Source: an archaeon (lineage in GTDB: Archaea > Nanobdellota > Nanobdellia > UBA10117). Taken from it: DNA of 30,091 nt. How positions within the stretch are numbered: the stretch's first letter is position 1; every line of letters begins with the position of its first letter. Location of the stretch: assembly GCA_043801255.1 (NCBI GenBank), contig JAZDME010000026.1, positions 1 to 30,091 on the forward strand, read 5' to 3'. The notes under the pieces were generated by a model. That model was given only the letters and a program-made list of their open reading frames with translations, did no database searches and had not been told where the DNA came from. Position numbers and translations under genes: made by a program. Below, piece after piece: positions 1 to 26,819 of this stretch.

Positions 1-1038
1 GTTATCAAACCCTCCAAGAAACCTTTTTTCTCATTTTCAAAACCAAAACCTAAACCGCTGCCGCAACCGAAGCCGGCTCCAATCAAAAAGTCATTTTTCG
101 CGCCAAAGCCCAAACCGATATTTGTGCCAAAGCCCAAATTACTTAATTTGGGCAGCCACGCTGCGCGTGACAAACCAAAACACTCCTTTTTTGCACAGGC
201 TCCCAAACTTTTGCCAAAGCCCGTACCGAAGCCCGTTGAAGTAAAACATGAAGTGCAGATTACTGGCAAGAGTGTTGAAGACATAAAAGAGCTTCACAAA
301 AGGCACAAGGAACTTTTAAGTTCCTTGGATGTGCACGGGAAAAATCTCGCTACTCTTGAAAAGGAGTTTGACGAGCACCGCGAAGAAGTTCTTGACGAAA
401 TCAAGGCAATCAACAAAAATCTCGGCCCGCTGTACGACAAGGATGCGAAGCTTGAGAAGGACATATGTGACCTGACGCTTGCGGGAAAGCAGCTTATTTC
501 CGAAATTGAAAAAGTTTCAAGAAAAGCAAAAGATGTCAAAGATATAGTGACTTCAGTTGAATCAGCATACAGCACAGATAACATGAAGAAAATCATTGAC
601 CAGATAAACGAAGTTAACGGCTCAATAAGGGCAATTCAAAGCAAAGACGAGAGCGCGGTAAATGTGCTTCAGCGCGTTGATCGCCGCATAGGCGCTGTTG
701 AAAAACACTCGCAGCTTATGGATGCGGAGCGCGCGGAAATGAAAGCATCTGCAGACGCGTTAGTGCAGTACGCTTCCGAATTAAAGGAAACCGTCGGAGG
801 TTATTCCAACCAGCTTGTGGACCTGTCAAGCAAGGCGTCAGCAAACATTTCAAAAACATCAGACATTGACCAGCAGCTGCGCAGCGCCATGGGCAGGGTC
901 GGGGCAATCGAGGGGCAGCTTATCGCTGCCGAAAAGCTTTCGGAAATAATGCAGCAGCACTCAAGAATAATAACCGAAATTGCAAAGCGCCTCGAGTATC
1001 TGGAAAAAAGCACAGTCAGGACGATGGTGCTGGACTAG
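1..1038 (+). CDS. Hypothetical protein, 5'-truncated; Pro/Lys-rich low-complexity N-region followed by long coiled coil
   Basis: Frame of the 124..1038 ORF is open back to base 1 (VIKPSKKPFFSFSKPKPKPLPQPKPAPIKKSFFAPKPKP...), so the GTG at 124 is probably internal; heptad-like helical C-terminal two thirds. Confidence 0.7.
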   Translation, partial: VIKPSKKPFFSFSKPKPKPLPQPKPAPIKKSFFAPKPKPIFVPKPKLLNLGSHAARDKPKHSFFAQAPKLLPKPVPKPVEVKHEVQITGKSVEDIKELHKRHKELLSSLDVHGKNLATLEKEFDEHREEVLDEIKAINKNLGPLYDKDAKLEKDICDLTLAGKQLISEIEKVSRKAKDVKDIVTSVESAYSTDNMKKIIDQINEVNGSIRAIQSKDESAVNVLQRVDRRIGAVEKHSQLMDAERAEMKASADALVQYASELKETVGGYSNQLVDLSSKASANISKTSDIDQQLRSAMGRVGAIEGQLIAAEKLSEIMQQHSRIITEIAKRLEYLEKSTVRTMVLD

Positions 1039-1182
1039 GCAATTGAATACTTCAGATAATTTTGAGAAGGGATATTGTTATTGATTGTGAGCAGCAAAAG
1101 TCATTGGCTTGCAGAATAAGAAAACTTTTTGCGAAGCTTGAAATTGGGAGATTGCCCAGTTCGTCGTCGCAAGTCGTCAGTC
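1018..1182 (+). repeat. Palindromic repeat family copy 1, between convergent genes
   Basis: Left arm ACGATGGTGCTGGACTAGGCAAT overlaps the upstream stop; core ATTGATTGTGAGCAGCAAAA; right arm ATTGCCCAGTTCGTCGTCGCAAGTCGTCAG. Ends approximate. Confidence 0.75.
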
Positions 1183-2811
1183 TTAGTACCCCATGTCCTC
1201 GCCCTGGGGCATCATTCCCGGCCCGCCTTGCTGCGGGCCCTTGTTTAGTTTGCCTGCTGAAATAACGTCATCAATTCTTAACAGCATGATTGCAGTTTCT
1301 GATGCTGATGCTATTGCCTGCGTTTTTATTTTCAGCGGCTCTATAACGCCTTTGAGCCACATGTCATCTGCTTTTCCGGTGTATACATTCAGGCCCGCGT
1401 GTACGACGCCTTTGTCGTGCTGGGATTTCAGTTCCGTAAGAGCGTCAATCGGGTCGATTCCGGCATTTTCAGCCAGCGTCCGCGGAATAACTTCCAGGCT
1501 GTCTGCAAATGCCATTACCGCAAGCTGCTCGCGCCCGCTTAATTTATCGGCATAGCTTCTGAGCCTTTTCGCAAGCTCAATTTCAATAGCGCCGCCGCCG
1601 GCAACACACTTGCCAAAAGTTATGGTCGCAGCCAAATCTCCCACAGCGTCTGTCATAGCTCTCTCTACTTCGGCAACCACATGCTCAGTACCGCCGCGCA
1701 GAATTATTGAAACTGCCTTCGGGTTTTTGCACTTTTCAATGAAAGTGAAGCTTTCCTTGTGAATCTTTTTTTCTTCCAGCAGCCCGGCGAATCCCAGGTC
1801 AGTTGGTTTCAAGTCATCAAGATTTGATATTATTTTTGCGCCAGTGGCTTTTGCAAGCGCACTGATGTCTGACTGCTTTACTCTGCGGACAGCGTAAATT
1901 CCCTTTTTGGCAAGAAAGTGCTGTGCCAGGTCATCAATACCTTTCTGGCATATCACAACGTTGGCGCCGGAAGCAATAACTTTGTCAGTCATATCCCGGA
2001 GCATTTTTTCCTCTACTGCAAGAAATGACTGCATCTGCTGAGGGTCTGTAATCTGGATTTTTGCCTCGGTTTCAGTTTCCTTTATTTCCAGGGCGATGTC
2101 CAGCAGCGCTATTTTCGCATCTTTAACAATAGTAGGCATATCACTATGCACTCTTTCTTTGTCAATAACTATGCCGTCAACAAGAATCGAGTCATCAATT
2201 CCCCCGCCTTCCTTTTTTTCTATCTTTATGTTGTCAAGGTCAACTTTTGTCCCGTCCATTACCCGAAGGACAGCGTCAACAGCGATATTTGCTAAATTAT
2301 CCCGGGCAATCTCAACATTTTTTCCGGTCATTGCGGTTGTTGCAACTTTAATTAGCGAGTCTCTGTCTTTTGAAGAAATGTCCTTGCTGAGCTCGCGCAA
2401 AATTAATTGAGCTTTTTCAGCAGCATCTTTGTACCCGCGGGCTATTACGGTAGGATGTATGTTTTTGTCCAGAAGCGTTTCAGCATTTTTCAATAATTCG
2501 CCTGCTAAAATTACCGCAGTAGTAGTGCCGTCTCCAACTTCGTCTTCCTGCACCTTAGCGATTTCAACCATCATCTTGGCTGCAGGATGCTCAATATCCA
2601 TTTCACCAAGTATCGTAACTCCATCATTCGAGATAATAACATCGCCCATCGAGTCGACGAGCATCTTGTCCATGCCTTTCGGGCCCAGTGTTGTCCTTAC
2701 AGTATCTGCAACAGCCTTTGCTGCAGCAATGTTTGCTTTCTGCGCTGATTTGCCTGTGTTGCGCATGGCGCCCTCAGGCAGTATAAAAATTGGCTGCACT
2801 TGATTAGTCAT
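1183..2811 (-). CDS. thsA: Thermosome subunit (group II chaperonin)
   Basis: [38 protein letters not shown] motifs; Gly/Met-rich tail; GGTGA RBS upstream. Confidence 0.97.
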
Positions 2812-2881
2812 TTAAATCACCACAAATCAGCCTAACCTTAGTTTTAAAAGAATTATTGTATTGCAAAGTATTGCTGGTGCA

Positions 2882-3000
2882 GACTGCCAAGACGACGACT
2901 ACGGATATTCCATTGTATTTAAGCTTCGCAGCAATTCCAAGCGGGAACTTTTTGTGCTCCCTTAACTCATGACCTTTGCCCTAGTTCGTCGTATAGCCAT
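2882..3000 (-). repeat. Palindromic repeat family copy 2 (reverse orientation)
   Basis: Minus strand reads ACGACGAACTAGGGCAAAGG...GGGAGCACAAAAA...GCGAAGCTTAAATACAATGG...GTAGTCGTCGTC. Confidence 0.8.
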
Positions 3001-3016
3001 CAAAATCAGAAATTGC

Positions 3017-3262
3017 CTAGTAAAGCCCCTTCATTTCCTTGCGCATGTCAGCCAATATCACCGCAATAACAATTACGAGTATGCTTATAAAAGCCATGAA
3101 AAAAGTTGACAGCGCCTGCCATGTTATCAGCGACTGCACCTGAAAGCTGATTGCGCGCTCAAGAAGCCACATAGTCACAATAGTCCATACCGCAAGCACA
3201 ATAACGAGTATGGCTTCAACAGAATCGGGTTTTGAAGACTTGATGTCTTTTATCAGCGACAT
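3017..3262 (-). CDS. Small membrane protein with two predicted TM helices
   Basis: 81-aa ORF with two hydrophobic stretches; fills the gap between repeat copy 2 and a divergent gene. Confidence 0.65.
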   Translation of the reverse strand: MSLIKDIKSSKPDSVEAILVIVLAVWTIVTMWLLERAISFQVQSLITWQALSTFFMAFISILVIVIAVILADMRKEMKGLY

Positions 3263-3322
3263 GGCTTTAATTCCATACAGCGCAATAAAAAGCTTTTTAT
3301 TCAGCCAATTAAAAATAACAGC

Positions 3323-3824
3323 ATGGCCAACAAGCTGACCCTTCTCGACGGCGAGAAAATAACATATGATAGTGTGTTCGACCTGAAGGAATTATACAAG
3401 CATCTTTACGAATGGCTCACCTGGCGCAAGTATGACATTTCCGAAAAAAAAATACAAGGAAAAAGTAAAGCCGACAGGCAAGGACATGGAAATCCAGTGG
3501 GAAGCCAATAAGGACATTGATGAATATGCTTCCTTCAGGATAGAGATGAAAGCCCAGCTCCTCGGCATAAACGAAGTCGAAGTCCAGAAGGACGGCGCCA
3601 AAGTTAAAATGCAGAAGGGCGAGATTAGCATAAGTGTCTCGGCACATCTTATTACAAACAGGCTGGAGGCATGGGAGGCAAAGCCCGGACTCTCATTCCT
3701 GCAGAAATTTTATGAGAAATTCCTTTACAAAAGCTCGATTGAAAGAATGAAGGCAGAGTTATGGAAGACCGGCTGGGATTTCTATAACGAAGCAAAAGCG
3801 TTCCTGAATCTGTACAGGTTCTAG
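3323..3824 (+). pseudogene. Conserved hypothetical protein split by a +1 frameshift in an A9 run
   Basis: ORFs 3323..3511 and 3432..3824 join into one ~166-aa protein (...KYDISEKK-YKEKVKPTGKDMEIQW...) if the A run at 3444-3452 is A8. Resembles, from memory, a hypothetical family common in DPANN genomes. Confidence 0.7.
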
Positions 3825-4038
3825 ACGACTGCCTTTGGCGAATTGAATATTTCTGATAATTTTGAGAAGGGCAAAGCTCATTGATTAGGGGCAGCAAAAG
3901 CAATTCCCATGATTTTTGGCAAGCAGAACCGCAGCCTAAAAACAAAGAGATAACATCAAGTCTATAGACTTGATGGAATGGAAAATTGCCTAGCAATTTT
4001 TCATATCCTTAGTCGTAGTAGTCGTTAGTCGTCGTCAG
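3822..4038 (+). repeat. Palindromic repeat family copy 3 (long), between convergent genes
   Basis: Shares AATTGAATA..TTC.GATAATTTTGAGAAGGG and ATTGATT..GCAGCAAAAG with copy 1; right arm AGTCGTAGTAGTCGTTAGTCGTCGTCAG. Confidence 0.8.
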
Positions 4039-4042
4039 AGTC

Positions 4043-6976: not shown

Positions 6977-6977
6977 A

Positions 6978-7470: not shown

Positions 7471-7608
7471 CTGACGCAGAGTTCTACGACTACTAACTAC
7501 GAGGGAAAAGTCTCTTGATTGGAAGCAGCAAAAACTATCTTGTTGTGAAAAGTAATTGCGAAGCCCAATAATTGAGACTTTACATTAGTCGTCGTTCGTC
7601 GTCAGTCG
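7471..7608 (+). repeat. Palindromic repeat family copy 4, between convergent genes
   Basis: CTGACG..CTACGACTACTAACTACGAGGG, core TTGATTGGAAGCAGCAAAAACTATCTTG, right arm TAGTCGTCGTTCGTCGTCAG. Confidence 0.8.
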
Positions 7609-7616
7609 ATAAGTCA

Positions 7617-9150: not shown

Positions 9151-9285
9151 TGACGACTACTATAACTGGCTACAACGACGAACGGGGATATGTCTATTGA
9201 TTGTGGGAGCAAAAATCTTGCTTGTGGGACTTGTAGCGAAGCCAAAATACATGGCAATTTCCCTAGTCGTCCGTCGTAGTCGTCA
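9151..9285 (+). repeat. Palindromic repeat family copy 5
   Basis: Perfect 10-bp terminal inverted repeat TGACGACTAC/GTAGTCGTCA; core ATTGATTGTGGGAGCAAAAA and GCGAAGCCAAAATACATGGCAATTTCCCTAG. Confidence 0.88.
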
Positions 9286-9341
9286 GTAGCTCTATACAAA
9301 CAATATACTTAAATAATCCGTAATTACAAATGTAATATAAG

Positions 9342-9755: not shown

Positions 9756-10306
9756 ACATATTTCCATTCGGAAGGTCAAAAAAAGCAATCTCCCCGATAA
9801 TTGCAGTTATACTGCTATTGATGATGACCGTTGCTGTCGCAGGAGCCGCATTTTTCTGGCTCTCCCGCATCCAAGGACAGATGCAGGGCGGCGTAGAGTC
9901 ATACCAGAGCAAGATTTTCGAGAATATTGCGTCACGGGTTGACGTAATTGACGCGGATTACCAAACAATCAGCAGCGTCGAATATCTTACTATTTTCCTG
10001 CACAACACAGGCAACTCAAAAATACCTGTGAGCAGCGCCGCATCATTTCCGACAACAACATGGATTCTGAAGGATTCAGACCAGGTCGCGGTATGCTCAA
10101 CAAACTGGGGAGGCGGCACAAACCAGACTGCCTGCACCGAAGGCTGCGGCTCAACAACGCAGATTGATGTGGGCGAAATACACAAAGTAGTTTTAAGGTT
10201 GTCAGGCACAACCTGCGCACTATCCCTAAAATCATCAGGCACGGTATTTTCATTCACAATTGACTTTTCAGGAAAAACCACTACGTCAGGCAGTTTTGTG
10301 AAATGA
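9752..10306 (+). CDS. Archaeal type IV pilin-like protein
   Basis: Class III signal KKA|ISPIIAVILLLMMTVAVAG (Pilin_N/DUF1628-type N-terminus). Confidence 0.9.
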   Translation: MNIFPFGRSKKAISPIIAVILLLMMTVAVAGAAFFWLSRIQGQMQGGVESYQSKIFENIASRVDVIDADYQTISSVEYLTIFLHNTGNSKIPVSSAASFPTTTWILKDSDQVAVCSTNWGGGTNQTACTEGCGSTTQIDVGEIHKVVLRLSGTTCALSLKSSGTVFSFTIDFSGKTTTSGSFVK

Positions 10307-11358
10307 TGAAATCTTCAAAAGGCATAGAGTCCATAATTGCCGTATTACTTGTGGTAATGATAACAATAGCTGCCGCAGGCAGCTTTTATTTCTGGTATAC
10401 GCGCGTCCAGCAGGAAGCCCAGGGCAGAACTGAACAGTCAACAACAAATTACCTGAAACAGCTGAACTCGTGCATAAAGTTCCCTTATTTTGAATACAGT
10501 TTATACTCAAATGAATCGTATGTACAGGTGCAGAACTGCGGTTCGATTCCAATTACAATCGGGGATGGCGATGACAATGTGCTGATATCATCCGAGCCCT
10601 GCGCATTTGCAGTTGACTCGCAGGTATGCAACATATGCCCTTTTACGGTAAACCCCGGCGCATTTAACAAATTCAAGTTGAACTTTAATCATGCAGCATG
10701 TTCAGGCACCAATGAAACAGCCGCGGATGTTTTGTCTGATGAGGGAAATGTGCAGCACACGATTTCCTTTTCAATGGATACGGCAGCCGTAACAGCAACA
10801 AAGAACTTTGAACCAACCAACAATATAATCATACCAACCAATGTAACAACATACTGGCGGGATGATTTCAACGACCTGGGCAGCTGGATAAAAACAGGAA
10901 CAGACACGATGGAAATTGTAAATGGGACCCTGCATATTTTAACAGCTTCGGACATGGCCCAGCTGACTACTAACGATATAATGTTTAGCTTTGACACAAC
11001 AAAAGACTACACAGTCAAAACAAGAGTAAAGATAGCAGGGCCATCACACTGGCTGTTCTTCATGTACAATAACGGCGTGCATCTGGTTTACGATATTTCT
11101 ACTCTCAGCTGCAGATATGGCAATATCAATACTCAGATTGCCCCGCTCACGATCGGGCAGTGGTATGATATTCAGGCAAATGTGCAGCCATCTTCCGACG
11201 TATATGATGTTTATCTTAACGGAACCCTGATGCAAACATGCAGCATGCCAACAGACAGGCTAACTGACGAGTTCCTGATCGGGGACTTTGAGGCAGGGCT
11301 TATAAATTTTGGAGAGATGTACTTCGATTACTTTGAGGTCAACAGCACGTCCGTATAA
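10303..11358 (+). CDS. Type IV pilin-like protein with C-terminal beta-sandwich (ConA/LamG-like) domain
   Basis: SKG|IESIIAVLLVVMITIAAAG; tail starts WRDDFND and includes WYDIQANV..YDVYLNG..FGEMYFDYFEV. Fold assignment is inference. Confidence 0.82.
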   Translation: MMKSSKGIESIIAVLLVVMITIAAAGSFYFWYTRVQQEAQGRTEQSTTNYLKQLNSCIKFPYFEYSLYSNESYVQVQNCGSIPITIGDGDDNVLISSEPCAFAVDSQVCNICPFTVNPGAFNKFKLNFNHAACSGTNETAADVLSDEGNVQHTISFSMDTAAVTATKNFEPTNNIIIPTNVTTYWRDDFNDLGSWIKTGTDTMEIVNGTLHILTASDMAQLTTNDIMFSFDTTKDYTVKTRVKIAGPSHWLFFMYNNGVHLVYDISTLSCRYGNINTQIAPLTIGQWYDIQANVQPSSDVYDVYLNGTLMQTCSMPTDRLTDEFLIGDFEAGLINFGEMYFDYFEVNSTSV

Positions 11359-11414: not shown

Positions 11415-12332
11415 ATGTCGTCAAAGAAAGGAGTTGATACCATAATTGCTGTACTGCTTGTGGTAATGATAACAATAGCTGCCGCAGGCAGCTTTTATTT
11501 CTGGTATATCCGAGTCCAGCAGGAAGCCCAGAGCAAGGCAGAGCAGTCAACATCATCATTTCTTACCCAGATAAACACATGCATAAAGATGCCTTACTTT
11601 TCATATAATCTTTTGACAAACACATCTGAGGCGCAGGTGCAGAACTGCGGTTCAACGCCGCTGACAATAGGCGATGGCGATGACAATGTGCTGATATCAT
11701 CCGAGCCCTGCGCATTTGCAGTTGACTCGCAAATATGCGATATATGCCCGTTTGTTATCGGACCCGGGGCGTTCGGGAAATTTAAGATGAATATGAACAG
11801 GGCAACATGCTCCGGAACAAATGTGACAGCAGCAAAGCTGCTCTCGGGCGAGGGAAACATGCAGCATAAAGTGACATTTTCAATGGAAAAATCAACAGTA
11901 ACCGCTTCGCAGAGCTTTGTTCCTGAAGCAGACGTTAAGTGCAGCGTTAATCTGAACGGCACTGCAAGCATAATTTTCCCATGGATTTCTGCACCATGGT
12001 ATGTGCTGCGTGAAGGGACTGCAGCATATAATTTATCGCTGTCCAGCAATATACCGCAGACATTTGCAATCAGCGGGAGTTTTAACCTGCCTGACTGCAA
12101 TGTTACTTATACAAACGACAGTCTTTGCCGCAGCTATAACTATCCGGATTTAAATCCGAATATGACCGCAATAGCATCAATAACTGTTAATCCGGACACA
12201 GGCGCACTGTTCCTGGGATGTATTTACTGCAGCCTTGGCGGCGATATAGGCAATTTAACAACAACAGTCAGGTCAACAGACCTTGCAACTTGCAACGAGG
12301 CAAAAACATCAACTTCAATTGATCAGAGATAA
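11415..12332 (+). CDS. Type IV pilin-like protein, paralog of 10303 with a different C-terminal domain
   Basis: KKG|VDTIIAVLLVVMITIAAAG; first ~165 aa align with the 10303 product, then diverge. Confidence 0.85.
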   Translation: MSSKKGVDTIIAVLLVVMITIAAAGSFYFWYIRVQQEAQSKAEQSTSSFLTQINTCIKMPYFSYNLLTNTSEAQVQNCGSTPLTIGDGDDNVLISSEPCAFAVDSQICDICPFVIGPGAFGKFKMNMNRATCSGTNVTAAKLLSGEGNMQHKVTFSMEKSTVTASQSFVPEADVKCSVNLNGTASIIFPWISAPWYVLREGTAAYNLSLSSNIPQTFAISGSFNLPDCNVTYTNDSLCRSYNYPDLNPNMTAIASITVNPDTGALFLGCIYCSLGGDIGNLTTTVRSTDLATCNEAKTSTSIDQR

Positions 12333-12974: not shown

Positions 12975-13556
12975 ATGAACCGCAAAGCACAATCAACAGT
13001 CATAGGATTTCTGGCGATAACTGCCATCGCCATTGTGATTGCAGGCACAACTTTTCTGTGGGCAAAACCATTGCTTGACAGGACAATGGCGCAGGATGAA
13101 GTCCTGCGCATTGAAAACAGGATGCTTGAACTGCATGCGGCAATAACAAGAGTCGCAAACACGCAGAGCCAGGCATCAGTGAGTTTTGATATAACCAAGG
13201 GAACACTGACTCTGGACCAAGATAATTCAATTATTTTCAAGATGTTTTCGGACCTGGCAAATCCATATCAGAATGTAGTCCTTCTTGGCAACGGAACCAC
13301 CGAGCTTGGAATCTTGGGCGTAAATGAGCCGGCATATATTCTGGAGCAGGGCTCTTATCTGGCAAAGCTGCATTACATTGTTCTTTATGATACTGCAACA
13401 GGCAATTGCAAAGGCATACGCCTGGAACCGGGAGGGCAGGTTACGGTAGGGCAGGGCAGGCACAGCGTGTTCCTGAAATGGGCGCGGCAGAACGAAACAA
13501 CTGTTGCCGGCTGCGCATCTACAACGCTGCAGGTGGTTCAGGTCGATATAGAATGA
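12975..13556 (+). CDS. Class III signal peptide protein (minor pilin-like)
   Basis: MNRKA|QSTVIGFLAITAIAIVIAG; start moved from 12915 to 12975. Confidence 0.8.
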   Translation: MNRKAQSTVIGFLAITAIAIVIAGTTFLWAKPLLDRTMAQDEVLRIENRMLELHAAITRVANTQSQASVSFDITKGTLTLDQDNSIIFKMFSDLANPYQNVVLLGNGTTELGILGVNEPAYILEQGSYLAKLHYIVLYDTATGNCKGIRLEPGGQVTVGQGRHSVFLKWARQNETTVAGCASTTLQVVQVDIE

Positions 13557-14206
13557 CGAAAACTGACGATGGACTAGGGCAAAGGTGTTTGATTATGGAA
13601 CAAATTGCTAAGCAATTTTTCCATTCCGCCAAATCGCTACGATTTGGCGTTAAGGGAAGCAAAAGTCCTGCCGAGAGAGAAACCCTGACACAATCAATGA
13701 GGCCCAAGCCGAACGAAGTTCGGCGGGGCGCAGCCGAAATCTCATTTCGGCTAGTGTTTTCCCCTCGTCGTAATCCGTCGTCGTCAAGAGCACAGTACTC
13801 CGTAGTCTACATGCTTGCGATTTCAGGAATACTGATTTTTTTGATGGGCGCTGTTTTTATCATGACAAGCAGTTTCCAGCGGGCAACAACCGAAAATTTC
13901 GGGCGCGAGATTCTTGGCAGCGTTACAGCGAAAATAGAAACCAGCCTGATTGAGTTTAAGGAGCTCAGCAAGAATGCAAACACGTCATCAGCAAACATAA
14001 ATATACCTGAACTTATTGGCGAGCAAAGGTATCAGGTAACAGCAAACCAGCACATGATTGAAATAAGAACATTCGGCAACCCGTCGCTGGTGCAGCAGTA
14101 TAACGTGACTTTCTGGGATGCGGATTTAGGCGGCTCTGTATTTTCTTCCAAAGGCAAGATACATGTGACATATTCTGCAGCCAACAATAAGGTGATGTTT
14201 GAATAA
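13553..14206 (+). CDS. Class III signal peptide protein with repeat-derived 80-aa leader
   Basis: ATG 13553 overlaps the upstream TGA (ATGA); SSRA|QYSVVYMLAISGILIFLMG follows the repeat-encoded leader. Confidence 0.72.
   Translation: MTKTDDGLGQRCLIMEQIAKQFFHSAKSLRFGVKGSKSPAERETLTQSMRPKPNEVRRGAAEISFRLVFSPRRNPSSSRAQYSVVYMLAISGILIFLMGAVFIMTSSFQRATTENFGREILGSVTAKIETSLIEFKELSKNANTSSANINIPELIGEQRYQVTANQHMIEIRTFGNPSLVQQYNVTFWDADLGGSVFSSKGKIHVTYSAANNKVMFE
13554..13786 (+). repeat. Palindromic repeat family copy 6 (longest, in frame inside a CDS)
   Basis: Ends TGACGA/TCGTCA; GGACTAGGGCAAAGG left, CCCCTCGTCGTAATCCGTCGTCGTCA right; several internal hairpin modules. Confidence 0.85.
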
Positions 14207-14207
14207 A

Positions 14208-14402
14208 CTGGCTGCTGCTGCGACTAACGACGACTAGGGAAAAGGATATTGATTGAGGGACAGTAAAAACTATCTTGGCTTGCGGATTAGGCAAAACATT
14301 TCAGCAAAGCTAAAATACATGGCGACCCGAGCCAACAAAGTTGGCTGGGCACAGCCGAAATCTCATTTCGGCTAGTGTTGCCCTCGTAGTCAGCAGTCGT
14401 AG
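14208..14402 (+). repeat. Palindromic repeat family copy 7
   Basis: ACGACGACTAGGGAAAAGGATATTGATTGAGGG...AAAGCTAAAATACATGGCG...GCCCTCGTAGTCAGCAGTCGTAG. Confidence 0.85.
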
Positions 14403-14446
14403 TTTGTTGCATAAATTTTTAATAGCCAGCGCCCGAGTGAGTATAG

Positions 14447-16192
14447 ATGGCCATTAACATAGCTGTGCTGCGGAACATTTTCAGAAAAGCAGAACTTGAT
14501 AAAACTGCAGCCAGGGCAAGTAAGATTACAGAGCTGCCAGCCGAACAGGCGCAGGCTCAGGAGCCAGTTACGCATGTTATTGAGCCTCTCGCAGAAGTGA
14601 AGCCTGCAGAGGTAAAAGACGAGCTTACGCCAATATCGCTTCCAAAAGTTTATGAACGGACAACGATTGCCCGCGAAGACGTTCTTTCAAGAATAAGGCA
14701 GGTTTCAGAAACATATCCGCTGATTGTAACAAAGTGGCGCGGCGCGCGCTATGTTGTTGCAACCGCAAATATTGCGTTTAATCCGGTAAGCAACCAGCTT
14801 AACTACGTGGTTGAAGAACCGCCCGTTGACAGCAAACTCAAGGAAATAATAAAAAAAACAATAGAGCTTCTGCAGAGCAGGCTGGAAGTTGACTTTTCAA
14901 CTTTGAAAGCAAAAAGGGAAGTTTACTCATTTGTTGATAAAAAGGTAACTGAAATATGGGAATATCTTCAGATAAATCCTACGCCAGAAGAGGAGCTAAA
15001 GGCAAAATACTATATTTTCCGCGATACCATCGGGCTTGGGAAAATTGAGGCGCTTATGCGCGACCCGAACATAGAGGATATCTCCGCAGACGGCGTGGGC
15101 ATTCCGGTTTTTATCTTTCACAGGAATCCGCTGTACGGCGAAATGCCAACCAACATTATTTTTAATTCGAAACAGGAGCTTGACTCTTTTGCAATGCGGC
15201 TTGCGCAGAAATCCGGAAAGACAATTTCTGTTGCCACGCCGCTGCTGGACGCAATGCTTCCGGATAACAGCAGGCTCCAGGTAACATTCGGCACTGACAT
15301 AGCGCGCAAGGGCTCTAATTTTTCAATCAGAAAATTCTTCAAAATCCCGCTCACAGTCGTGGACTTGATAAATTACGGGACAATAAGCCCGCTGATGCTT
15401 GCGTACCTCTGGTTTGCGGTTGAGGAGCAGCAGTCTGTTTTAATCACGGGGGGAACTGCAACAGGAAAAACCACTTTCCTTAATTCAATTTCACAGTTCA
15501 TACATCCTACTCTCAAAATTGTTTCAATTGAGGACACAGCAGAGTTGATGCTGCCGCAGGTAAACTGGGTTCCGCAAATTGCACGCTCAGGCTACGGCCC
15601 GAGGAAATACGGCGAAGTCAGCATGTTTGACCTTCTCAAAGCAGCACTGAGGCAGCGTCCGGATTACATAATAGTCGGGGAAGTAAGAGGAGAGGAAGCA
15701 AATGTAATGTTCCAGGCCATGGCTACCGGGCACCCGTCTCTCAGCACGATACATGCGGACAGCATGGACGCTGTTATTGACAGGCTTACAACAAGGCCGA
15801 TATCACTCCCGCTGGCGTTATTGGCGCATCTTGACATCGTGGTATTTCTGGAAAAGACAAAAAAAGCAGGCAAGTTTGCAAGGCGCGTAAGCCAGATTCT
15901 GGAAATAACAAACTACGACCGCGATTTGAACAAGCTGAAAAATGCGGAAGTTTTCAAATGGCTGCCTGCTGAAGACGAGTTCGTGGCAGAAAACAGCTTC
16001 ATCCTTGCAAGAATAGCAAAACGGCTCGGAAAAACACCGGTGCAGATAAAAGAGGAAATCCTCAGGCGCGCAGCAGTAATGCGCTGGATGGTCGAGAACA
16101 ACATCCACGGTTTTAAGGACGTTGCCCACATTATACAGCTGTATTATGTAGACCCCAAACGGCTTGCAGATATGATGGCCCAGAGGAGATGA
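14447..16192 (+). CDS. Type II/IV secretion ATPase (archaeal pilus assembly ATPase, TadA/ArlI-like)
   Basis: Walker A GGTATGKTT, Asp box SIEDTAEL, Walker B LRQRPDYIIVGEVRG, His box GHPSLSTIHA. Confidence 0.95.
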   Translation: MAINIAVLRNIFRKAELDKTAARASKITELPAEQAQAQEPVTHVIEPLAEVKPAEVKDELTPISLPKVYERTTIAREDVLSRIRQVSETYPLIVTKWRGARYVVATANIAFNPVSNQLNYVVEEPPVDSKLKEIIKKTIELLQSRLEVDFSTLKAKREVYSFVDKKVTEIWEYLQINPTPEEELKAKYYIFRDTIGLGKIEALMRDPNIEDISADGVGIPVFIFHRNPLYGEMPTNIIFNSKQELDSFAMRLAQKSGKTISVATPLLDAMLPDNSRLQVTFGTDIARKGSNFSIRKFFKIPLTVVDLINYGTISPLMLAYLWFAVEEQQSVLITGGTATGKTTFLNSISQFIHPTLKIVSIEDTAELMLPQVNWVPQIARSGYGPRKYGEVSMFDLLKAALRQRPDYIIVGEVRGEEANVMFQAMATGHPSLSTIHADSMDAVIDRLTTRPISLPLALLAHLDIVVFLEKTKKAGKFARRVSQILEITNYDRDLNKLKNAEVFKWLPAEDEFVAENSFILARIAKRLGKTPVQIKEEILRRAAVMRWMVENNIHGFKDVAHIIQLYYVDPKRLADMMAQRR

Positions 16193-16320
16193 CTACTACG
16201 GACTACGAGAGCAAAGGTCACTGATTTCGGCATCATTTTCTCAGCATGCTTGCTTTTGACTAGCTTTAATCAATGGCATTTGAACGCCGAGCGTTAGCGA
16301 GGCGCGTTCGCAGTCGTCAG
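16190..16320 (+). repeat. Palindromic repeat family copy 8 (degenerate core)
   Basis: TGACTACTACGGACTACGAGAGCAAAGG left arm starting at the ATPase stop; right arm CAGTCGTCAG. Confidence 0.7.
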
Positions 16321-16359
16321 CGTAAAACTTAATACTGCCTTTAAATTCTAGATTTAGTA

Positions 16360-17241
16360 ATGGCCGCCAGTTCAAACATATATGCGCAATCATTCGGTTT
16401 ATTCAGCTCCATAGTCAAAAAGCACGAGAGTTTTTTCCAGCCGCTGCAGGACGACCTGAGAAAAGCGCACATCACAGTTCCGACAGAGCACTGGGCAGCA
16501 TTTACCATATTTGTGGCGGTTATGACGTCAATACCAGCTTTCATATTCTGCCTGATGTTTGCAGTCGTCGGCATGGGTTTCGGGCTGTCTGCGGTACTCG
16601 TGGGAATCTGCGCAGGCTTAGGCATAACTGCAGGCTCATTTTTTCTGGCGTATAAATACCCGTCCCTGGCAGCAGACGAGCGGAAAAAGAAAATCGAAAA
16701 CGCGCTTTCATTTTCAACAATTTACATGTCAACCATAGCGCGTTCAGGATTTCCGCCGCAGGAAATCTTCCGCCTTCTGGGCGGATTTACGGAATACGGC
16801 GAAGTTGCGAAGGAAGCAAGAAAAATATCCTCAGACATTAACGTGCTGGGGCTCGATGTGTCTGCAGCGCTGAACATGGCTGCGGCAAGAAGCCCGAGCG
16901 CAGACTGGACAGAGCTTCTCGCTGGGCTGAAAACAACAATCAATGTCGGCGGAGACCTTGGCAGTTTTCTTTCGGAAAAAGCAAAAGGATTTGTCGCGGA
17001 TTACAGGCGCAGGCTGAAGGACTTCAGCAATATGCTCAGCCTGCTGGTTGAAGTTTATATCACTCTGGTAGTTGTAGGAGTTGTATTTTTCATTGTTACA
17101 ACATCGGTAATGGTTGCAATAGGCGGCGTGCCAGTCGAGCTGATAAAAATGATAAATTACGCGCTGGTGCTGGTGGGAATGCCGATAATTACAGCAGCGT
17201 TCATATTAATCATAAAAGGAATTTCGCCCCTGGAGGCTTAG
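16360..17241 (+). CDS. T2SS-F/TadC-like pilus platform protein
   Basis: Multi-TM; ERKKKIENALSF...YMSTIARSG, GEVAKE..KI..DINVLGLD, TINVGGDLGSFL pattern next to the ATPase. Confidence 0.9.
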   Translation: MAASSNIYAQSFGLFSSIVKKHESFFQPLQDDLRKAHITVPTEHWAAFTIFVAVMTSIPAFIFCLMFAVVGMGFGLSAVLVGICAGLGITAGSFFLAYKYPSLAADERKKKIENALSFSTIYMSTIARSGFPPQEIFRLLGGFTEYGEVAKEARKISSDINVLGLDVSAALNMAAARSPSADWTELLAGLKTTINVGGDLGSFLSEKAKGFVADYRRRLKDFSNMLSLLVEVYITLVVVGVVFFIVTTSVMVAIGGVPVELIKMINYALVLVGMPIITAAFILIIKGISPLEA

Positions 17242-18429: not shown

Positions 18430-18454
18430 GGAAATAATCTGGAAATATGTCAGC

Positions 18455-18562
18455 AACGACGACTACTAGGGCAAAGCGCATTGATCCGGGCATCGGAAAC
18501 TCTCGGGGCTGGCAGTTGGTGCTCCCCCAAACAATAACAATAACCTAGTCGTCCGTCGTCGT
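18455..18562 (+). repeat. Palindromic repeat family copy 9
   Basis: ACGACGACTACTAGGGCAAAG left; CCTAGTCGTCCGTCGTCGT right. Confidence 0.82.
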
Positions 18563-18572
18563 AAAACAAAAA

Positions 18573-19418
18573 ATGTCAATAAAACAAAACCGCAATGCAC
18601 AATCGCCCGCCGAATTTATCATAGTTGTTTTTCTTTTTCTAATAATACTTATTTCGGTTTTCACAACGTTTATGACAAAACTCCGCCCGGAGATTGAAAA
18701 AGTGGTTGAGCAAAAAGCATGCCTGAAAGCAAGCGGTTTGGCCACGTACGTATTGAAAGAGCCCGGCTCGCCCTCAGCATGGACACCAGCGAATATTCAG
18801 ATATTCGGGCTGACTAACGGCACAGATGATATTATATCTTATGACAAGTGGCTTGCTGCGCAGGGCGCAGGCAATGCAGTCATAAGCAGAAAAGTGGTTC
18901 CCGACACAAGCTTTCTGCTCGGATATTCAATTTATGCTTTTAAGCCAGATGTTGCAGACACATGTCAGGCAGTAAATGGAACCGTGATTTGCAGGACTGG
19001 CACAGTCATACACATTACTTCGATATCTGCTTCTCAGGCAACACTTAACTTGAAACTGTTTTTCCCGTTCAGCACGGCAGCAGCAACCACAGGAACTAGG
19101 GAATCTGATGATACTGTTACAACAAGCAGCTCAAGCGGCACTACCATGACTATTGCGCTGCACACAAGCGCATCAGATTCGGACACGTTTGATATATCCC
19201 TGTCGGCATATCCGCGCCTGGCTTTTATACAGGAAGCAGACCACAAAACGTCCGGAGGAGTGAGCCTGCCGATTTTCATAGGAAACACTTCTGCAGTTGA
19301 AAGTTTCGGCTCCGCAACAACAGGCGTAAACAATTACTGCGAGGCAGAGCGTGGAGCGGACATTCTGGGAAAGAGTAATGAGCTTTTCCCGGCGAGGTTC
19401 AGCATACTGGCATGGTGA
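18573..19418 (+). CDS. Class III signal peptide protein (minor pilin-like)
   Basis: MSIKQNRNA|QSPAEFIIVVFLFLIILISVF with Glu at +5; C..A..LA..LLKEPG.P..W pattern. Confidence 0.8.
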   Translation: MSIKQNRNAQSPAEFIIVVFLFLIILISVFTTFMTKLRPEIEKVVEQKACLKASGLATYVLKEPGSPSAWTPANIQIFGLTNGTDDIISYDKWLAAQGAGNAVISRKVVPDTSFLLGYSIYAFKPDVADTCQAVNGTVICRTGTVIHITSISASQATLNLKLFFPFSTAAATTGTRESDDTVTTSSSSGTTMTIALHTSASDSDTFDISLSAYPRLAFIQEADHKTSGGVSLPIFIGNTSAVESFGSATTGVNNYCEAERGADILGKSNELFPARFSILAW

Positions 19419-19999
19419 TGGATATTACGGCTGGAGAGGTTTATGAACGAGGGCAAAGGGTATTGATTAAAGGCAGCCAGCGCCATCTCGATTGGCGAGC
19501 ATGGAAGACCGAAGCCATAACCAATGACCATTCCCCCCGTCGTCGTAGTCGTCGTTTAAACAAGAAGGGATTTTTTTATTTTGTGGAAGTAGCGCTTATC
19601 GGGATGCTGCTTATTACATTCTTTTTCGTATTTTCGCCAAAGGCGGAAACCAGCTATCAGGGCCTGCAGGATGCCAGAAATCTGAAACAGGCAGGATACG
19701 GAACTTTAAAATCACTTGATGACACAGGCGTACTTTCCGCGTATATAGATCCCAGCACAATGGCAAATTCAAATTTCGCAGCGCTTAAAACCTACATAAG
19801 TGCAGCCCTGCCAGAAGCAGTTTATTCGCAGATTGAATACGCCGAAAGCTCAACATCCTGCTATTCAGAAACAGGCGTCAGCAGAAGCTGCGGCTTGAAT
19901 GTAACAAACTTGAAAGCTGATGTGATAAGGGCAGATTATACTTATTCCAAGCGCCCGTCGCCAATAACCATACATATCTTTCTCTGGAGGGCGCTATGA
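19418..19999 (+). CDS. Class III signal peptide protein with repeat-derived 51-aa leader
   Basis: TGATG overlap with upstream stop; NKKG|FFYFVEVALIGMLLITFFF follows the repeat-encoded leader. Confidence 0.75.
   Translation: MDITAGEVYERGQRVLIKGSQRHLDWRAWKTEAITNDHSPRRRSRRLNKKGFFYFVEVALIGMLLITFFFVFSPKAETSYQGLQDARNLKQAGYGTLKSLDDTGVLSAYIDPSTMANSNFAALKTYISAALPEAVYSQIEYAESSTSCYSETGVSRSCGLNVTNLKADVIRADYTYSKRPSPITIHIFLWRAL
19425..19555 (+). repeat. Palindromic repeat family copy 10 (in frame inside a CDS; left arm degenerate)
   Basis: GAACGAGGGCAAAGGGTATTGATT, GAAGCCATAACCAATG, CCCCCGTCGTCGTAGTCGTCGT. Confidence 0.78.
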
Positions 20000-20805
20000 C
20001 TTGTGACGACGAACGGCTACGACGACTACGATTGATATCTCCATTGATTGAGGGAAGAAATGCTATTCCAGTTGACGAGAGCAAACATGACGCTCAGCAA
20101 AAGCCAAATACATGGCGATTGCCCTCGTCGTTTAGTCGTCGCTTCAGCAGCAGGGGGCAGTTCATGATTGTAACAATAGTCCTTATAGGGCTCGCATTTT
20201 TCACGATGTTCCTTCTTGTCAGGACTGCCGACAGGAATGCAGTTGTAATGTTTGAACAGCCAGAAGCAGCAGCAAATTTTGAGAACCTGCAAAATGCCAT
20301 AATACACAGGAACAGCTGGATGCAGGATTACTGGTGGAATCTTAACTGGGAAAATCGGGCAGCCATAAACATAACCGAAGGTGCGGAAAATCCTGTGATG
20401 GTAAACGCAGGAATTCCCGGAGGGACAAACTGCAACGGGGAAGTCCGCGTTGTAAATTCAACTGGCGCAGAGCTGAAATCAAATGTCAACTCAGAGCAGT
20501 CTCCGTGCAACGTTATTTTTACGGCGGACACAACAGGCATATACTATGTTTACTGGAATAATCCGGAGGCTGTAGCGCCTTCTTACAGAGTCGAAGTCCA
20601 GTCTGAAGGAAATGTGCCTGCAAGATACAATATCTTGGGAGAGGTTTCACCGAAGTCAAAATTCTGCCCCAATTTTGAAAATATTTCACTGGCAGCGGAA
20701 GCGCAGCTGGACTGCGGTATCCAGAGCATCATAAACAACAAAAAGGTCAACTATAAGATAGATTATGCTTCCACGGATTTTTCGTTCTCGGGATATTTGA
20801 GTTAG
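19996..20805 (+). CDS. Class III signal peptide protein with repeat-derived 54-aa leader
   Basis: ATGA overlap with upstream stop; SSRG|QFMIVTIVLIGLAFFTMF follows the repeat-encoded leader; WWNLNWENR.AINI segment downstream. Confidence 0.75.
   Translation: MTCDDERLRRLRLISPLIEGRNAIPVDESKHDAQQKPNTWRLPSSFSRRFSSRGQFMIVTIVLIGLAFFTMFLLVRTADRNAVVMFEQPEAAANFENLQNAIIHRNSWMQDYWWNLNWENRAAINITEGAENPVMVNAGIPGGTNCNGEVRVVNSTGAELKSNVNSEQSPCNVIFTADTTGIYYVYWNNPEAVAPSYRVEVQSEGNVPARYNILGEVSPKSKFCPNFENISLAAEAQLDCGIQSIINNKKVNYKIDYASTDFSFSGYLS
20004..20141 (+). repeat. Palindromic repeat family copy 11 (in frame inside a CDS)
   Basis: TGACGACGAACGGCTACGACGACTACG, ATTGATTGAGGGAAG, AAAGCCAAATACATGGCGATTGCCCTCGTCGTTTAGTCGTCG. 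Confidence 0.85.
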
Positions 20806-22476: not shown

Positions 22477-22506
22477 AGTCTTGCCAAATAAAGCATAACT
22501 ATCGGC

Positions 22507-22520: not shown

Positions 22521-22539
22521 ACCATAATGGGTTTTCAGC

Positions 22540-23469
22540 ATGTTTGACAAGGTCAAGAAATTTTATGAGGAAAAATACAGGATTTTAATGGTAATTACGA
22601 TGCTTTTTGTCCTGTTCTCTATCGGAACTCTTGCATATTCAAAAGTCACGACAGGGGAATTCATAAAGAAAGATGTCAGCCTGAAAGGCGGCCTGCTGGT
22701 TACTGTAAGCACTGACAGGACTTACAACCCGACTGAGCTTGCAAAAAGCATAGGACTCGACTTGGGAGTAAGCGTAAACGCCAGAGGCTTAGGCTCAGTC
22801 TCAGGGCAGAACATAGGTTATACTATAGAGATAGAAAAGCTCTCAAATTCTTCGACAGCGATTCCTGCAATTGAAAAGGCAATGGGCATCACCCTTGGCG
22901 CTAAGGATTATACAATTGAGGAAAGCTCCAGTGCGCTGGGAGAATCATTTTTTTCCAGCACGTTAGAAACAATAGGGCTCGCATTCCTGTTTATGTCAAT
23001 AGTAGTATTCTTTTACTTCAGGCAGCCGATACCTGCGCTTGCGGTAATTCTTGCAGGAGCTTCGGACCTGATTGGAACTTTTGCCATAATGAATCTTGCA
23101 GGAATCAGGCTTTCAACAGCAGGAGTAGCCGCACTGCTGATGCTTATAGGATTTTCAGTTGACTCAGACATTTTGCTTTCCGCAAGAGTTCTGAAAAGAA
23201 CTGAAGGCACAGTCATGGACAGAGTTTACAGCTCAGTAAAAACAGGGCTGACGATGCAGACAACTGCAATCGTAGCGCTTGCAGTCATGTGGATAGTAAC
23301 GCCAGCCGAGTTATTGAAGCAAATCGCAATGATACTGATAATTGGTTTGGTTTTGGATATTTTCAACACATGGGTGCAGAACGTCGGAATACTAAGGGCG
23401 TATATGGAAAACAGGGAGAAGCAAAGCGGAATGTTTTCCGCTGGTTTCACTAAGGTAAAACATGGCTAG
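22540..23469 (+). CDS. secF: Protein translocase subunit SecF
   Basis: KDVSLKGG, SSALGESF, AALLMLIGFSVDSDILL, IIGLVLDIFNTW motifs. Confidence 0.93.
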   Translation: MFDKVKKFYEEKYRILMVITMLFVLFSIGTLAYSKVTTGEFIKKDVSLKGGLLVTVSTDRTYNPTELAKSIGLDLGVSVNARGLGSVSGQNIGYTIEIEKLSNSSTAIPAIEKAMGITLGAKDYTIEESSSALGESFFSSTLETIGLAFLFMSIVVFFYFRQPIPALAVILAGASDLIGTFAIMNLAGIRLSTAGVAALLMLIGFSVDSDILLSARVLKRTEGTVMDRVYSSVKTGLTMQTTAIVALAVMWIVTPAELLKQIAMILIIGLVLDIFNTWVQNVGILRAYMENREKQSGMFSAGFTKVKHG

Positions 23470-25006: not shown

Positions 25007-25063
25007 TAGTTTTCAATAAAACTAGCCAAACACTTTGTTTGGCTTTGTTTTGCTGAAATAATA

Positions 25064-25219
25064 CTGACGACTACTACGACGAACTACTAGGGCAATTTCT
25101 TATTTTTGTGTCAGGGTTTCTCTCCCAGCAAGATAGTTTTGCTTTCCCACAATCAATGGAGATATCTCTGGTTCGTCGTCAGCCGTTCCGTAATTGCCCT
25201 CGTCGTCAGTCGCAGTCGT
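25064..25219 (-). repeat. Palindromic repeat family copy 12 (core in reverse orientation)
   Basis: CTGACGACTACTACGACGAACTACTAGGGCAAT / ATTGCCCTCGTCGTCAG; minus-strand core CCATTGATTGTGGGAAAGCAAAACTATCTTG. Confidence 0.85.
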
Positions 25220-25269
25220 AATCATCAGCATATTTTTATATAGGCGAAACCATCCATGTTAAAGGTCAC

Positions 25270-26154
25270 ATGGTATTAGAGGATTTAATTCCCGTGCATC
25301 TGGCGGAAAGCAACCCATTGACTGTGCTGCCAATATCATTTCTTTACTCGACTCTGGCAATTTTTCTTGCGCTGTGGATTTTTCCGGCAAATGCAGCCAT
25401 AGTCGCGGTATTTTTAACAACTATAGCGTGCATGCCCCTGCTGCTCAGCGTCATAGGATTTGAAAAGGAGAAATCAGAGTCAAGCAGAGGCTACCTGAAA
25501 GACCTGCTGACAGATTTTTTCAAAGGCGACGTGCAGGAAGGCGGCGCAAAAACAGTTTTATCATTTTTTATGACAATGTTTATCGGCCTGACTTTGGCAA
25601 TAACATTCTGGTACACAGTCCTGCCGAAGGACATGCTTGTCAACCTCTTTTACCTGCAGCTGAACACAATAAAGGAAATAAACCTCGGAATTTCAGGCAA
25701 CGCAATTGTACCGGCATTTTTCGGCAAGATACTCGTAAATAATATCAAAGTGCTGGCATTTTCAATCCTGTTCTCGTTTATTTACGGCGCCGGCGCGATT
25801 TTTGTTATCTCCTGGAATTCTTCAATAATAGGCGTTGCAATGGGCGAGAGCATAAGAAAGGGAATCGCGCAGTTCACAGAGTCAACAGGCTTCGGAGCCA
25901 TTGCAGGATACTCTTCCGCAATCTCCGTCGGAATATTCAGGTATATGTTACACGGAGTTCCGGAGATTCTGGCATTTTTTGTCGGCGCTCTTGCAGGCTC
26001 GCTGATTTCAGTTGCCATAGTAAGGCACGAATATGATTCGGAAATGTTCAGGAAAACGCTGACTAACTCTGCAGGATTGCTCGGAGTGGCGATGTTACTT
26101 TTATTAATAGGCGCAGTTATCGAAGTAACGATATCGCCGCTGATAAGGCTATGA
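25270..26154 (+). CDS. SpoIIM (DUF95)-family membrane protein
   Basis: Multi-TM; ILVNNIKV..FSILFSF.YGAG..WNSSIIG and HGVPEILAFF..ALAG motifs. Confidence 0.85.
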   Translation: MVLEDLIPVHLAESNPLTVLPISFLYSTLAIFLALWIFPANAAIVAVFLTTIACMPLLLSVIGFEKEKSESSRGYLKDLLTDFFKGDVQEGGAKTVLSFFMTMFIGLTLAITFWYTVLPKDMLVNLFYLQLNTIKEINLGISGNAIVPAFFGKILVNNIKVLAFSILFSFIYGAGAIFVISWNSSIIGVAMGESIRKGIAQFTESTGFGAIAGYSSAISVGIFRYMLHGVPEILAFFVGALAGSLISVAIVRHEYDSEMFRKTLTNSAGLLGVAMLLLLIGAVIEVTISPLIRL

Positions 26155-26171
26155 TGATAGGTTGAGGTAAA

Positions 26172-26672
26172 ATGTTTAGCCCATTCGTAAAAAAACTGAT
26201 GTTTGCGCGCCAGTTCAACATGGAAGACGGCAAAATCGAGTTCCTTGGGGACCGCGAGCTATTGCTGCCAGTCGGGTTAGTAACTGAATTTCAGGCTTTT
26301 GATGTGGATAAAACATACATATTTGCAAAAAAAACATGCATAGCTGAACTTGCGCGCATTACAGCAAGGCTAGGCGTTAAGGGCCCAGAGCTTGTGAAAA
26401 ATCTGACAGAAATTTACGAGGCATTCGGGCTCGGCAGGATAGAAATAAAGGACTTTGATGTTAAAAACGGGCGGGCAATAATCAACATTATGGACTCGCC
26501 AGTTGCAAGGGATTATATCAGAAAAAACAAGTCTTCAAAGAGAGAAACTTGCAACTTTATCGCAGGCATGCTCGCGGGAATAGGCGAGAGCATATTCGGC
26601 AAGAGCATGGAAGCCAAAGAAGTGAAATGCATAGCAAAGGGCGATAATGTCTGCCAGTTTATAGTGAAATAG
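26172..26672 (+). CDS. V4R (4-vinyl reductase) domain protein
   Basis: FGLGRIEI...CNFIAGMLAG...EVKCIAKGDNVCQF; GAGGT RBS. Confidence 0.88.
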   Translation: MFSPFVKKLMFARQFNMEDGKIEFLGDRELLLPVGLVTEFQAFDVDKTYIFAKKTCIAELARITARLGVKGPELVKNLTEIYEAFGLGRIEIKDFDVKNGRAIINIMDSPVARDYIRKNKSSKRETCNFIAGMLAGIGESIFGKSMEAKEVKCIAKGDNVCQFIVK

Positions 26673-26676
26673 ATTT

Positions 26677-26819
26677 CTACGGCTACGACGAGTTCAAAGG
26701 GATATTGATTGAGGGAAGCAAGAATTCCCAACCCGCACAGCAGAACCGAAGCCACAATCAATGGAGATTGCAATGCACAGTCAATGCCAACGGCAGTCGT
26801 CAGTCGTCGCAGCCGTCAG
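26677..26819 (+). repeat. Palindromic repeat family copy 13
   Basis: CTACGGCTACGACGAG..AAAGGGATATTGATTGAGGGAAGCAAG..GAAGCCACAATCAATGG..CAGTCGTCAGTCGTCGCAGCCGTCAG. Confidence 0.82.

Follow-up and report, generated by a model that had tools for sequence, protein, structure and literature searches.

A dense family of palindromic repeats, probably non-autonomous mobile DNA, at gene boundaries of a small archaeal genome

Contig JAZDME010000026.1 of the archaeal assembly GCA_043801255.1, a stretch of 30,091 nt which was analysed at its full length and is called the window below, carries 13 copies of a palindromic repeat whose members are 115-250 bp long and contain no open reading frame (ORF). We consider it probable, at about 0.8, that these repeats constitute a family of small palindromic mobile elements, non-coding, specific to one lineage and non-autonomous in the manner of MITEs (miniature inverted-repeat transposable elements) and of REPINs, the hairpin-forming doublets of repetitive extragenic palindromic (REP) sequences. 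An earlier reading of the window from its letters alone (the first-pass annotation) had proposed an abundant, old, non-autonomous MITE- or REP-like family with no described counterpart. This reading is supported by the genome-wide copy count, by insertion polymorphism between relatives and by paralogous copies which are at most 84% identical.

One oriented family and its abundance

By repeat finding, direct reading and a MAFFT alignment (A1), the 13 loci were found to share a single oriented layout, which from 5' to 3' consists of a (GAC/TAC)n arm, AGGG, ATTGATTG-GGG-AGCAAAA, a variable centre, GCGAAGCC-AAATACATGG, CCCT and a (GTC/GTA)n arm. AGGG and CCCT form an inner stem, the conserved core is asymmetric, and the variable centre is able to carry nested hairpin modules. 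The consensus of 159 genome-wide copies reads ACGACgACGACgACtAGGGaAAaGgtcATTGATTgaGGGAAGCaAAAaCTATCTTG-(variable)-GCGAAGCCcaAATacAtgGcgATTtCCCTaGTCGTCGTCGT, with A/T-rich DNA on both sides, and a typical copy spans 115-150 bp.

The 16-base core motif AGGGNAANNNNNATTGATTNNGGG, with up to three mismatches, has 15 matches in the window and touches every listed locus, as against 0.24 expected (maximum 2) in dinucleotide shuffles. A covariance model, R1, seeded with 20 copies from other contigs and six window copies, recovers five window copies which were held out. The two most altered copies, c16190 and c13554, fall under the R1 threshold and were detected by nhmmer and through orthologous copies in a relative. 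Together with the alignment consensus, these results confirm the first-pass claim that the 13 loci are real members of one family. They are listed here with scores and, where computed, the z-score of single-stranded DNA folding.

c1018, 1018-1185, plus strand: R1 59.8 bits at 1047-1179 (held out); core intact and 3' (GTC)n arm present, 5' arm replaced by a variant left end that also occurs in c3822; the TAG stop of the upstream gene (1036-1038) lies within this left end (GGACTAGGC), upstream of the core
c2882, 2874-3009, minus strand: R1 73 bits on the minus strand versus 16 on the plus; between two minus-strand genes
c3822, 3822-4042, plus strand: nhmmer E=2e-23, R1 37.1 bits (held out); long variant containing an additional internal hairpin; starts at the TAG with which the upstream gene ends
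c7471, 7477-7611, plus strand: R1 91.3 bits, fold z=-2.45; between convergent genes
c9151, 9151-9290, plus strand: R1 100.3 bits, fold z=-2.07; in a divergent intergenic region; the window copy nearest to the consensus
c13554, 13556-13795, plus strand: nhmmer E=3.7e-16; composite of a core variant and two nested inserts, one of them a double-hairpin module at about 13696-13757; in-frame leader of pilin-like gene X
c14208, 14211-14409, plus strand: R1 54.6 bits (held out); nested double-hairpin module at about 14319-14378; insertion private to the host genome
c16190, 16188-16326, strand ambiguous: 44.5 bits with the genome-wide hidden Markov model, fold z=+0.39; decayed
c18455, 18441-18571, plus strand: R1 69.8 bits; private insertion
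c19425, 19418-19561, plus strand: R1 75.7 bits, junction comparison and translations; 5' arm decayed; in-frame insertion in pilin-like gene Y, after the ancestral ATG and ahead of the processing site NKKG^FFYF (caret)
c20004, 20004-20148, plus strand: R1 84.9 bits; in frame within the leader of pilin-like gene Z
c25064, 25064-25225, minus strand: R1 65.6 bits on the minus strand (held out), fold z=-3.94; between two plus-strand genes; extra outer arm pair
c26677, 26670-26822, plus strand: R1 41.5 bits (held out), fold z=-2.69; variant close to symmetry, its left side carrying ATTGATTG and its right side CAATCAAT

The (GAC)n/(GTC)n arms have a median length of 11-17 bp, range from 0 to about 40 nt and have no fixed terminus; their length differs even between orthologous copies, a variation which would fit trinucleotide slippage. 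The first-pass annotation had attributed such arms to all copies, and here c1018 and c3822 depart from it, as they have no 5' (GAC)n arm. In its place both carry a common 65-nt left part (AATTGAATA.TTC.GATAATTTTGAGAAGGG...) at 1041-1105 and 3841-3905, which is a sub-family or a shared rearrangement. The occurrence of copies in both orientations holds for c2882 and c25064, with the refinement that the element itself is oriented and that the strand of c16190 is ambiguous.

Another, shorter repeat was also observed, namely the double-hairpin module, which is about 55 nt long and reads AGCCGAAC-nnnn-GTTCGGCT and then AGCCGAAAT-nnn-ATTTCGGCT, often with CTAG at its end. It occurs at 27 loci genome-wide (for example G000 C16:6680, C57:17260 and C59:3979, and window 13696-13757 and 14319-14378), with stems kept and loops variable. 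These modules are mostly nested in or adjoin the main element, in either orientation, and thereby give the intergenic DNA a mosaic character like that of bacterial interspersed mosaic elements (BIMEs).

The window is the complete contig C13 of an assembly of 80 contigs and 682,609 bp (72.5% complete, 0.13% contamination). Iterated nhmmer searches of the whole assembly found 172-179 loci, which amount to 23.5 kb or 3.4% of it, a density of about 260 copies per Mb. Six of the 160 contig ends lie near a copy, which is about chance by a rough estimate; contig ends are therefore not enriched for copies, fragmentation of the assembly has not biased the count, and the idea that the repeat causes assembly breaks was rejected. 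By a crude ORF prediction, a copy is present in 20% of co-directional, 34% of convergent and 27% of divergent intergenic regions. The element makes up most of the non-coding DNA, as intergenic regions that lack it measure about 10 nt at the median.

Insertions at gene boundaries and their effects on genes

The window encodes a thermosome, an archaeal CCA-adding enzyme, a DnaG-type primase, a type IV pilus ATPase with membrane proteins, and SecDF. By the ATPase, the closest named genomes are metagenome-assembled genomes (MAGs) of Candidatus Woesearchaeota and Nanoarchaeia at 66% identity or less, and the host is a small-genome DPANN archaeon of Woesearchaeota/Nanoarchaeia-like affiliation. The species collection holds no further genome of the host's genus, and the relatives carrying the same pilus operon are all metagenomic: L121 (ATPase identity 85%), L124 (80%) and L125 (77%, on a 682-kb contig). 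Occupancy of the orthologous sites is as follows.

Site of c14208: filled in the host; empty in L121, L124 and L125
Site of c18455: filled in the host; empty in L121, L124 and L125
Site of c16190: filled in the host and L121; empty in L124 and L125
Site of c19425: filled in the host and L121; empty in L124 and L125
Site of c13554: filled in the host, L121 and L125; empty in L124
Site of c20004: filled in the host, L121 and L125; empty in L124

At the empty sites the flanking genes overlap or lie 0-40 nt apart. The comparison with the 85% relative was extended to five more contigs of its population besides L121, and this relative carries 22 copies in 66.8 kb. Both flanks could be mapped for 16 sites; 13 of these are shared (two of them decayed and missed by the profile), and three, including the two top-scoring copies of this relative, are occupied in it only. 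The comparison shows that gene boundaries received their insertions at different times: some are private, most are shared at 85% and a few at 77%.

Where a gene faces a copy with its stop codon, the median distance of this codon from the core is 22 nt (57% lie within an arm's length), while for start codons the median is 62 nt. Copies are thus shown to provide adjacent genes with stop codons, which lie within an arm or at its edge. An instructive case is the pilus ATPase, whose gene ends in ...CAG CGT AAG ACT TAA at the empty sites. In the window (16165-16360), the ancestral last ATPase codons (CAGCGTAAAACTTAA) now lie 3' of c16190, and a TGA at the arm edge is the stop; from this displacement of the ancestral codons it follows that c16190 has replaced the C-terminus of the ATPase, in the host genome and in L121.

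The 5' ends of genes are affected as well. Three pilin-like genes (window 13553-13795, 19412-19570 and 19996-20160) contain the element in frame between the ancestral ATG and the predicted processing site, KG^F or AQ^F/Y. The insert adds 40-80 residues to leaders which have 5-9 residues in the empty-site orthologs (MTKAQ^YSVVY, MNKKG^FFYF and MISKSSRAQ^FMVV). Read-through uses the one open frame of the consensus, CGA CGA CTA GGG..., and this frame is kept open in all three lineages with the insert. Genome-wide, such embedding in an ORF, with a start upstream and at least 60 further codons downstream, applies to about 10 of 159 copies.

The use of this open consensus frame in three pilin-like genes and three lineages raises the question of whether the elements spread as in-frame peptide cassettes acting as protein segments. 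Core lengths modulo 3, however, are distributed as 58/41/60 over the 159 copies, without codon periodicity; open frames are moderately enriched in four of the six frames, and the frame used in the pilin-like genes is open in 65 of 159 copies, like three others. Moreover, only the approximately 10 copies mentioned above are embedded in ORFs, most being intergenic and in either orientation. By the modulo-3 test and the open-frame counts a general coding role was rejected, and such a family of protein-coding modules is the most improbable of the alternatives weighed here.

A side observation concerns a 300-nt direct repeat with 81% identity (window 10318-10617 and 11427-11726), which sits inside the adjacent ORFs 10303-11358 and 11415-12332. 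Neither has a Pfam match, and they look like tandem paralogous genes which are not related to the palindromic family.

Folding, conservation and distribution

The conserved, oriented core with its hairpin potential could also suggest a structured non-coding RNA or a cis-regulatory RNA, and within the window 10 of the 13 copies are on the plus strand among mostly plus-strand genes (two are minus and c16190 is ambiguous). As RNA, the consensus folds into one long hairpin of -56 kcal/mol. On the other hand, copies in co-directional gaps genome-wide are 46 sense and 44 antisense, RNAalifold returned no consensus structure for either alignment, and the sites are polymorphic between relatives. In Rfam, no match covering a repeat copy was found at E<=1 in the window, and none at all in a locus of genus G009 (see below), which also upholds the first-pass statement that the family has no described counterpart. 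With a structure specified by hand for a second alignment (A2), 75% of cells pair, versus 34-45% when the partner columns are slid, but shuffling the 3' partners among copies gives 75.6%, equal to the real pairing, and hence there is no covariation. An RNA family is therefore very improbable.

Compensation between the two arms of a copy was likewise rejected. Own arms pair at -20.5 kcal/mol and the arms of other copies at -21.1 kcal/mol, with a median rank of 79.5 out of 156. Since own arms pair no better and covariation is absent, the palindrome is a property of the consensus and is not maintained copy by copy; the complementarity of the arms derives from the shared periodic consensus. Correspondingly, the perfect inverted arms which the first-pass annotation had pointed out in c9151 are not typical: among 10 window copies folded as single-stranded DNA, six reach z<=-1.8 and three fold no better than shuffles.

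The family is old. Paralogous cores have a median identity of 64%, and the best pair reaches 84%. Between the host and the 85% relative, four-fold degenerate sites are 43-54% identical. In 10 orthologous copy pairs the variable columns are 0.43 identical, as against 0.37 in non-orthologous pairs, and the conserved columns 0.77 as against 0.78. The arms, AGGG/CCCT, ATTGATT and GCGAAGCC are thus kept while the rest is nearly randomised, which suggests purifying selection on resident copies.

Such constraint might also be expected if the repeats served the host in the manner of REP sequences or BIMEs, as terminators, stabilisers of mRNA 3' ends or sites for a chromatin or topology protein, with mobility only as their origin. 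The 77% identity of conserved positions in orthologous copies beside variable positions near saturation, the retention of 13 of 16 sites since the split from the 85% relative, the highest occupancy in convergent gaps (34%) and the proximity of copies to stop codons (median 22 nt) are all consistent with this explanation. Nevertheless, orientation is random in spite of the asymmetric core, three of the 10 folded window copies behave like shuffles, and close relatives lack the element at the corresponding junctions, where gaps measure 0-26 nt. A primarily host-serving element is, on balance, unlikely.

With respect to distribution, R1 found no match in 39 of 40 genomes of related species (16 of the same family and 22 of the same order). 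Four weak relatives of the core, without arms, were found in genus G009 and read GGGGTAAGTCTT...GCGAAGCCC...GAGATTCCCCTCGT; these arm-less copies may be relics or a sister family. Their loci are L105:1501-1604, L116:1501-1611, L117:313-431 and L118:509-615, and two of them abut sequences resembling the ends of tRNA genes. The copies of the 77% relative belong to a diverged variant without the AGGG/CCCT stem. In a pattern scan of metagenomes, seven of 12 matches had no R1 match and were taken as chance, and true copies came solely from the sample of the 85% relative. The family is confined to a narrow clade, with relics nearby.

A putative mobilising enzyme, known counterparts and significance

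The first-pass annotation had looked to empty orthologous sites for target duplications; such sites were found, and no duplication is detectable at them. Genome-wide, the frequency of 1-6-nt direct repeats at the ends of the arms does not exceed that in permuted flanks, and a clean junction is seen where L121 reads ATGATT^GAC...GTC^TCAA and L124 reads ATGATT^TCAA (carets, junctions), with no duplication. This bears on the explanation that the family consists of classical MITEs of a DDE-type transposase, in which the arms would be terminal inverted repeats, the repetitive arms would mask a short target duplication, and the transposase gene would be in the missing part of the assembly or lost. 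The long inverted arms, the small size, the lack of an ORF, the incompleteness of the assembly (72.5%) and a possible AAA duplication at the junction of pilin-like gene X argue for such an origin. Against it stand the clean junctions and the target-duplication signal, the wide range of arm lengths with no fixed terminus, and the searches for transposases: DDE_Tnp_1, rve, DDE_3 and Mutator gave no match, an absence not proven in an assembly of this completeness, and a single weak IS110 (DEDD) match was below the family cut-off. Classical DDE-type MITEs are unlikely.

The first-pass statement that the window has no transposase holds for the families searched, which matched solely on contigs C74, C57 and C75. 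The sole transposase detected in the assembly belongs to one IS200/IS605 unit on C74, where a TnpA of 143 residues (Y1_Tnp, E=2.5e-44) is divergent from a TnpB of 391 residues that runs to the contig end. This contig (L101:1-1780) has 39% G+C, the lowest in the assembly, and its subterminal hairpins are CAGTCGCTCAGAGCGACTG and CTCTTGAAAACTTTCGGTTTCCAAGAG on one side and GAGAAGCTTCGCTTCTC on the other. On C74 all R1 matches have E>=1, nhmmer gave no match at E<=1e-3, and inspection revealed no similarity to the family. This insertion sequence (IS) was accordingly rejected as the parent; a shared GCGAAGC heptamer and a CAGTCGC stem are too short to count. An IS or HUH enzyme with matching ends, as envisaged in the first-pass annotation, is therefore found in part: a Y1 (HUH) transposase is present in the genome, but its ends are unlike the element, and for this reason the link to a Y1 enzyme stays an inference. 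No Y1_Tnp was found in the 16 other genomes of the host's taxonomic family, and any co-occurrence of enzyme and element is based on a single genome.

The hairpin form, the absence of target duplications and the seamless empty sites nevertheless point to a Y1 enzyme. We suggest that the element would move as a folded single-stranded hairpin by a cut-or-peel-and-paste route which leaves no target duplication, and that it would be mobilised in trans, the most plausible enzyme being an HUH Y1 transposase of the IS200/IS605 type or of the REP-associated tyrosine transposase (RAYT) type. The conserved GCGAAGC, known to form a DNA mini-hairpin of unusual stability, would suit a single-strand intermediate. 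The arms may grow and shrink by trinucleotide slippage. Resident copies would not be decaying freely, as the arms and three or four motifs appear to be kept while other positions saturate, and a transposase or a host protein may still read the kept motifs.

Several points weigh against regarding the family as mobile DNA of this kind. No autonomous partner was found, the tnpA-tnpB unit on C74 being unlike the family and its subterminal hairpins different, and inverted arms of such length are seen more typically in DDE-type MITEs than in IS200/IS605 derivatives. Because the arms lack sharp ends, they could conceal a target duplication of 2-3 bp, and there is the AAA hint at the junction of pilin-like gene X. 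Some of the polymorphisms could be precise losses rather than gains; to account for the empty L124 sites at junctions J1 and J6, one has to assume either a loss or that insertion happened twice. No two copies are nearly identical, and current activity is therefore not shown. The test for constraint comprises 10 orthologous pairs, and its profile-guided alignment favours conserved columns.

Among the systems known to date, the element would appear to work most like the palindromic repeats of bacteria, namely REP/REPIN/BIME, the Rickettsia palindromic elements (RPE) and Correia-type MITEs. Like the REPIN-RAYT and BIME systems, it consists of extragenic palindromes (about 100-120 bp in those systems) in hundreds of copies, with conserved halves and a variable centre, and it further resembles REPINs in its long vertical persistence, the absence of target duplication, the mosaic hairpin modules and the single Y1 gene in the genome. 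It differs in that its halves are not short self-palindromes with an unpaired GTAG/CGTC tag, such tags occurring only in the paired arms, and in that these arms are paired trinucleotide repeats of variable length. In addition, the Y1 gene lies beside tnpB, is of the IS605 type and is not flanked by the repeat, contig C74 being devoid of family matches.

RPE are also palindromes, of 100-150 bp, which occur between genes and in frame within genes of a reduced genome, and which are old, diverged and without a known transposase. GTAG- and CGTC-tagged REP superfamilies have been described for bacteria, and RPE end in CGTC (PMC3733652); the arms of the present family are (CGT C)n-like. The two are likened by description, and homology across the different domains of life of their hosts is not expected; furthermore, in-frame copies are a minority here, and the verified ones reside in N-terminal leaders or C-termini, not in folded domains. 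Prokaryotic MITEs (Correia/NEMIS, ERIC/IRU and those of Sulfolobus and haloarchaea) are similarly small, non-coding, abundant, intergenic and polymorphic, with inverted ends, whereas the present family has no target duplication, no parent IS with matching ends and no fixed termini. Palindrome-associated transposable elements (PATEs) of haloarchaea and cyanobacteria, with IS200/IS605 or IS1341 ends, share with it the archaeal setting, the hairpins and the lack of target duplication. PATEs depend on enzymes of the IS200/IS605 family, and such an IS is present in the host, but PATEs share both ends with a resident IS and the one on C74 is dissimilar to the family. Integron attC sites were rejected in view of the random orientation, the scatter among housekeeping genes and the lack of a cassette array.

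In a MITE census a Woesearchaeal genome, which may or may not belong to the present lineage, ranks among the most MITE-dense archaea, with 105 per Mb (PMC11602168); the general phenomenon is therefore not new, although the family itself is undescribed. REPINs have been stated to be undetected in archaea (10.1101/2021.07.10.451892). A more far-reaching proposal would be an archaeal counterpart of REPIN-RAYT systems, with vertically inherited hairpin replicators, a single Y1 HUH transposase, purifying selection over tens of millions of years, and copies co-opted as gene-end modules (stop-codon donors and long cleavable type IV pilin-like leaders). We offer it as a speculative and quite unlikely extension of the mobile-element reading.

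The family is undescribed and lineage-specific. Its moderate interest lies in how densely it populates a minimal genome, in arms built of trinucleotide repeats, in the signs of long-term constraint and in the tolerance of in-frame insertions. DPANN genomes are among the smallest and most gene-dense, and here about a quarter of the intergenic gaps come from one palindromic family, while the corresponding operons of close relatives make do with 0-26 nt between genes. Insertions dated as private, shared at 85% or shared at 77% provide material for studies of element evolution, together with well-defined examples in which repeats have reshaped the ends of genes. Annotation benefits too, since the family accounts for ORF starts placed too far upstream and for C-termini that were not expected in these MAGs. 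More generally, selfish or semi-domesticated hairpin repeats are able to thrive and persist in minimal archaeal genomes.

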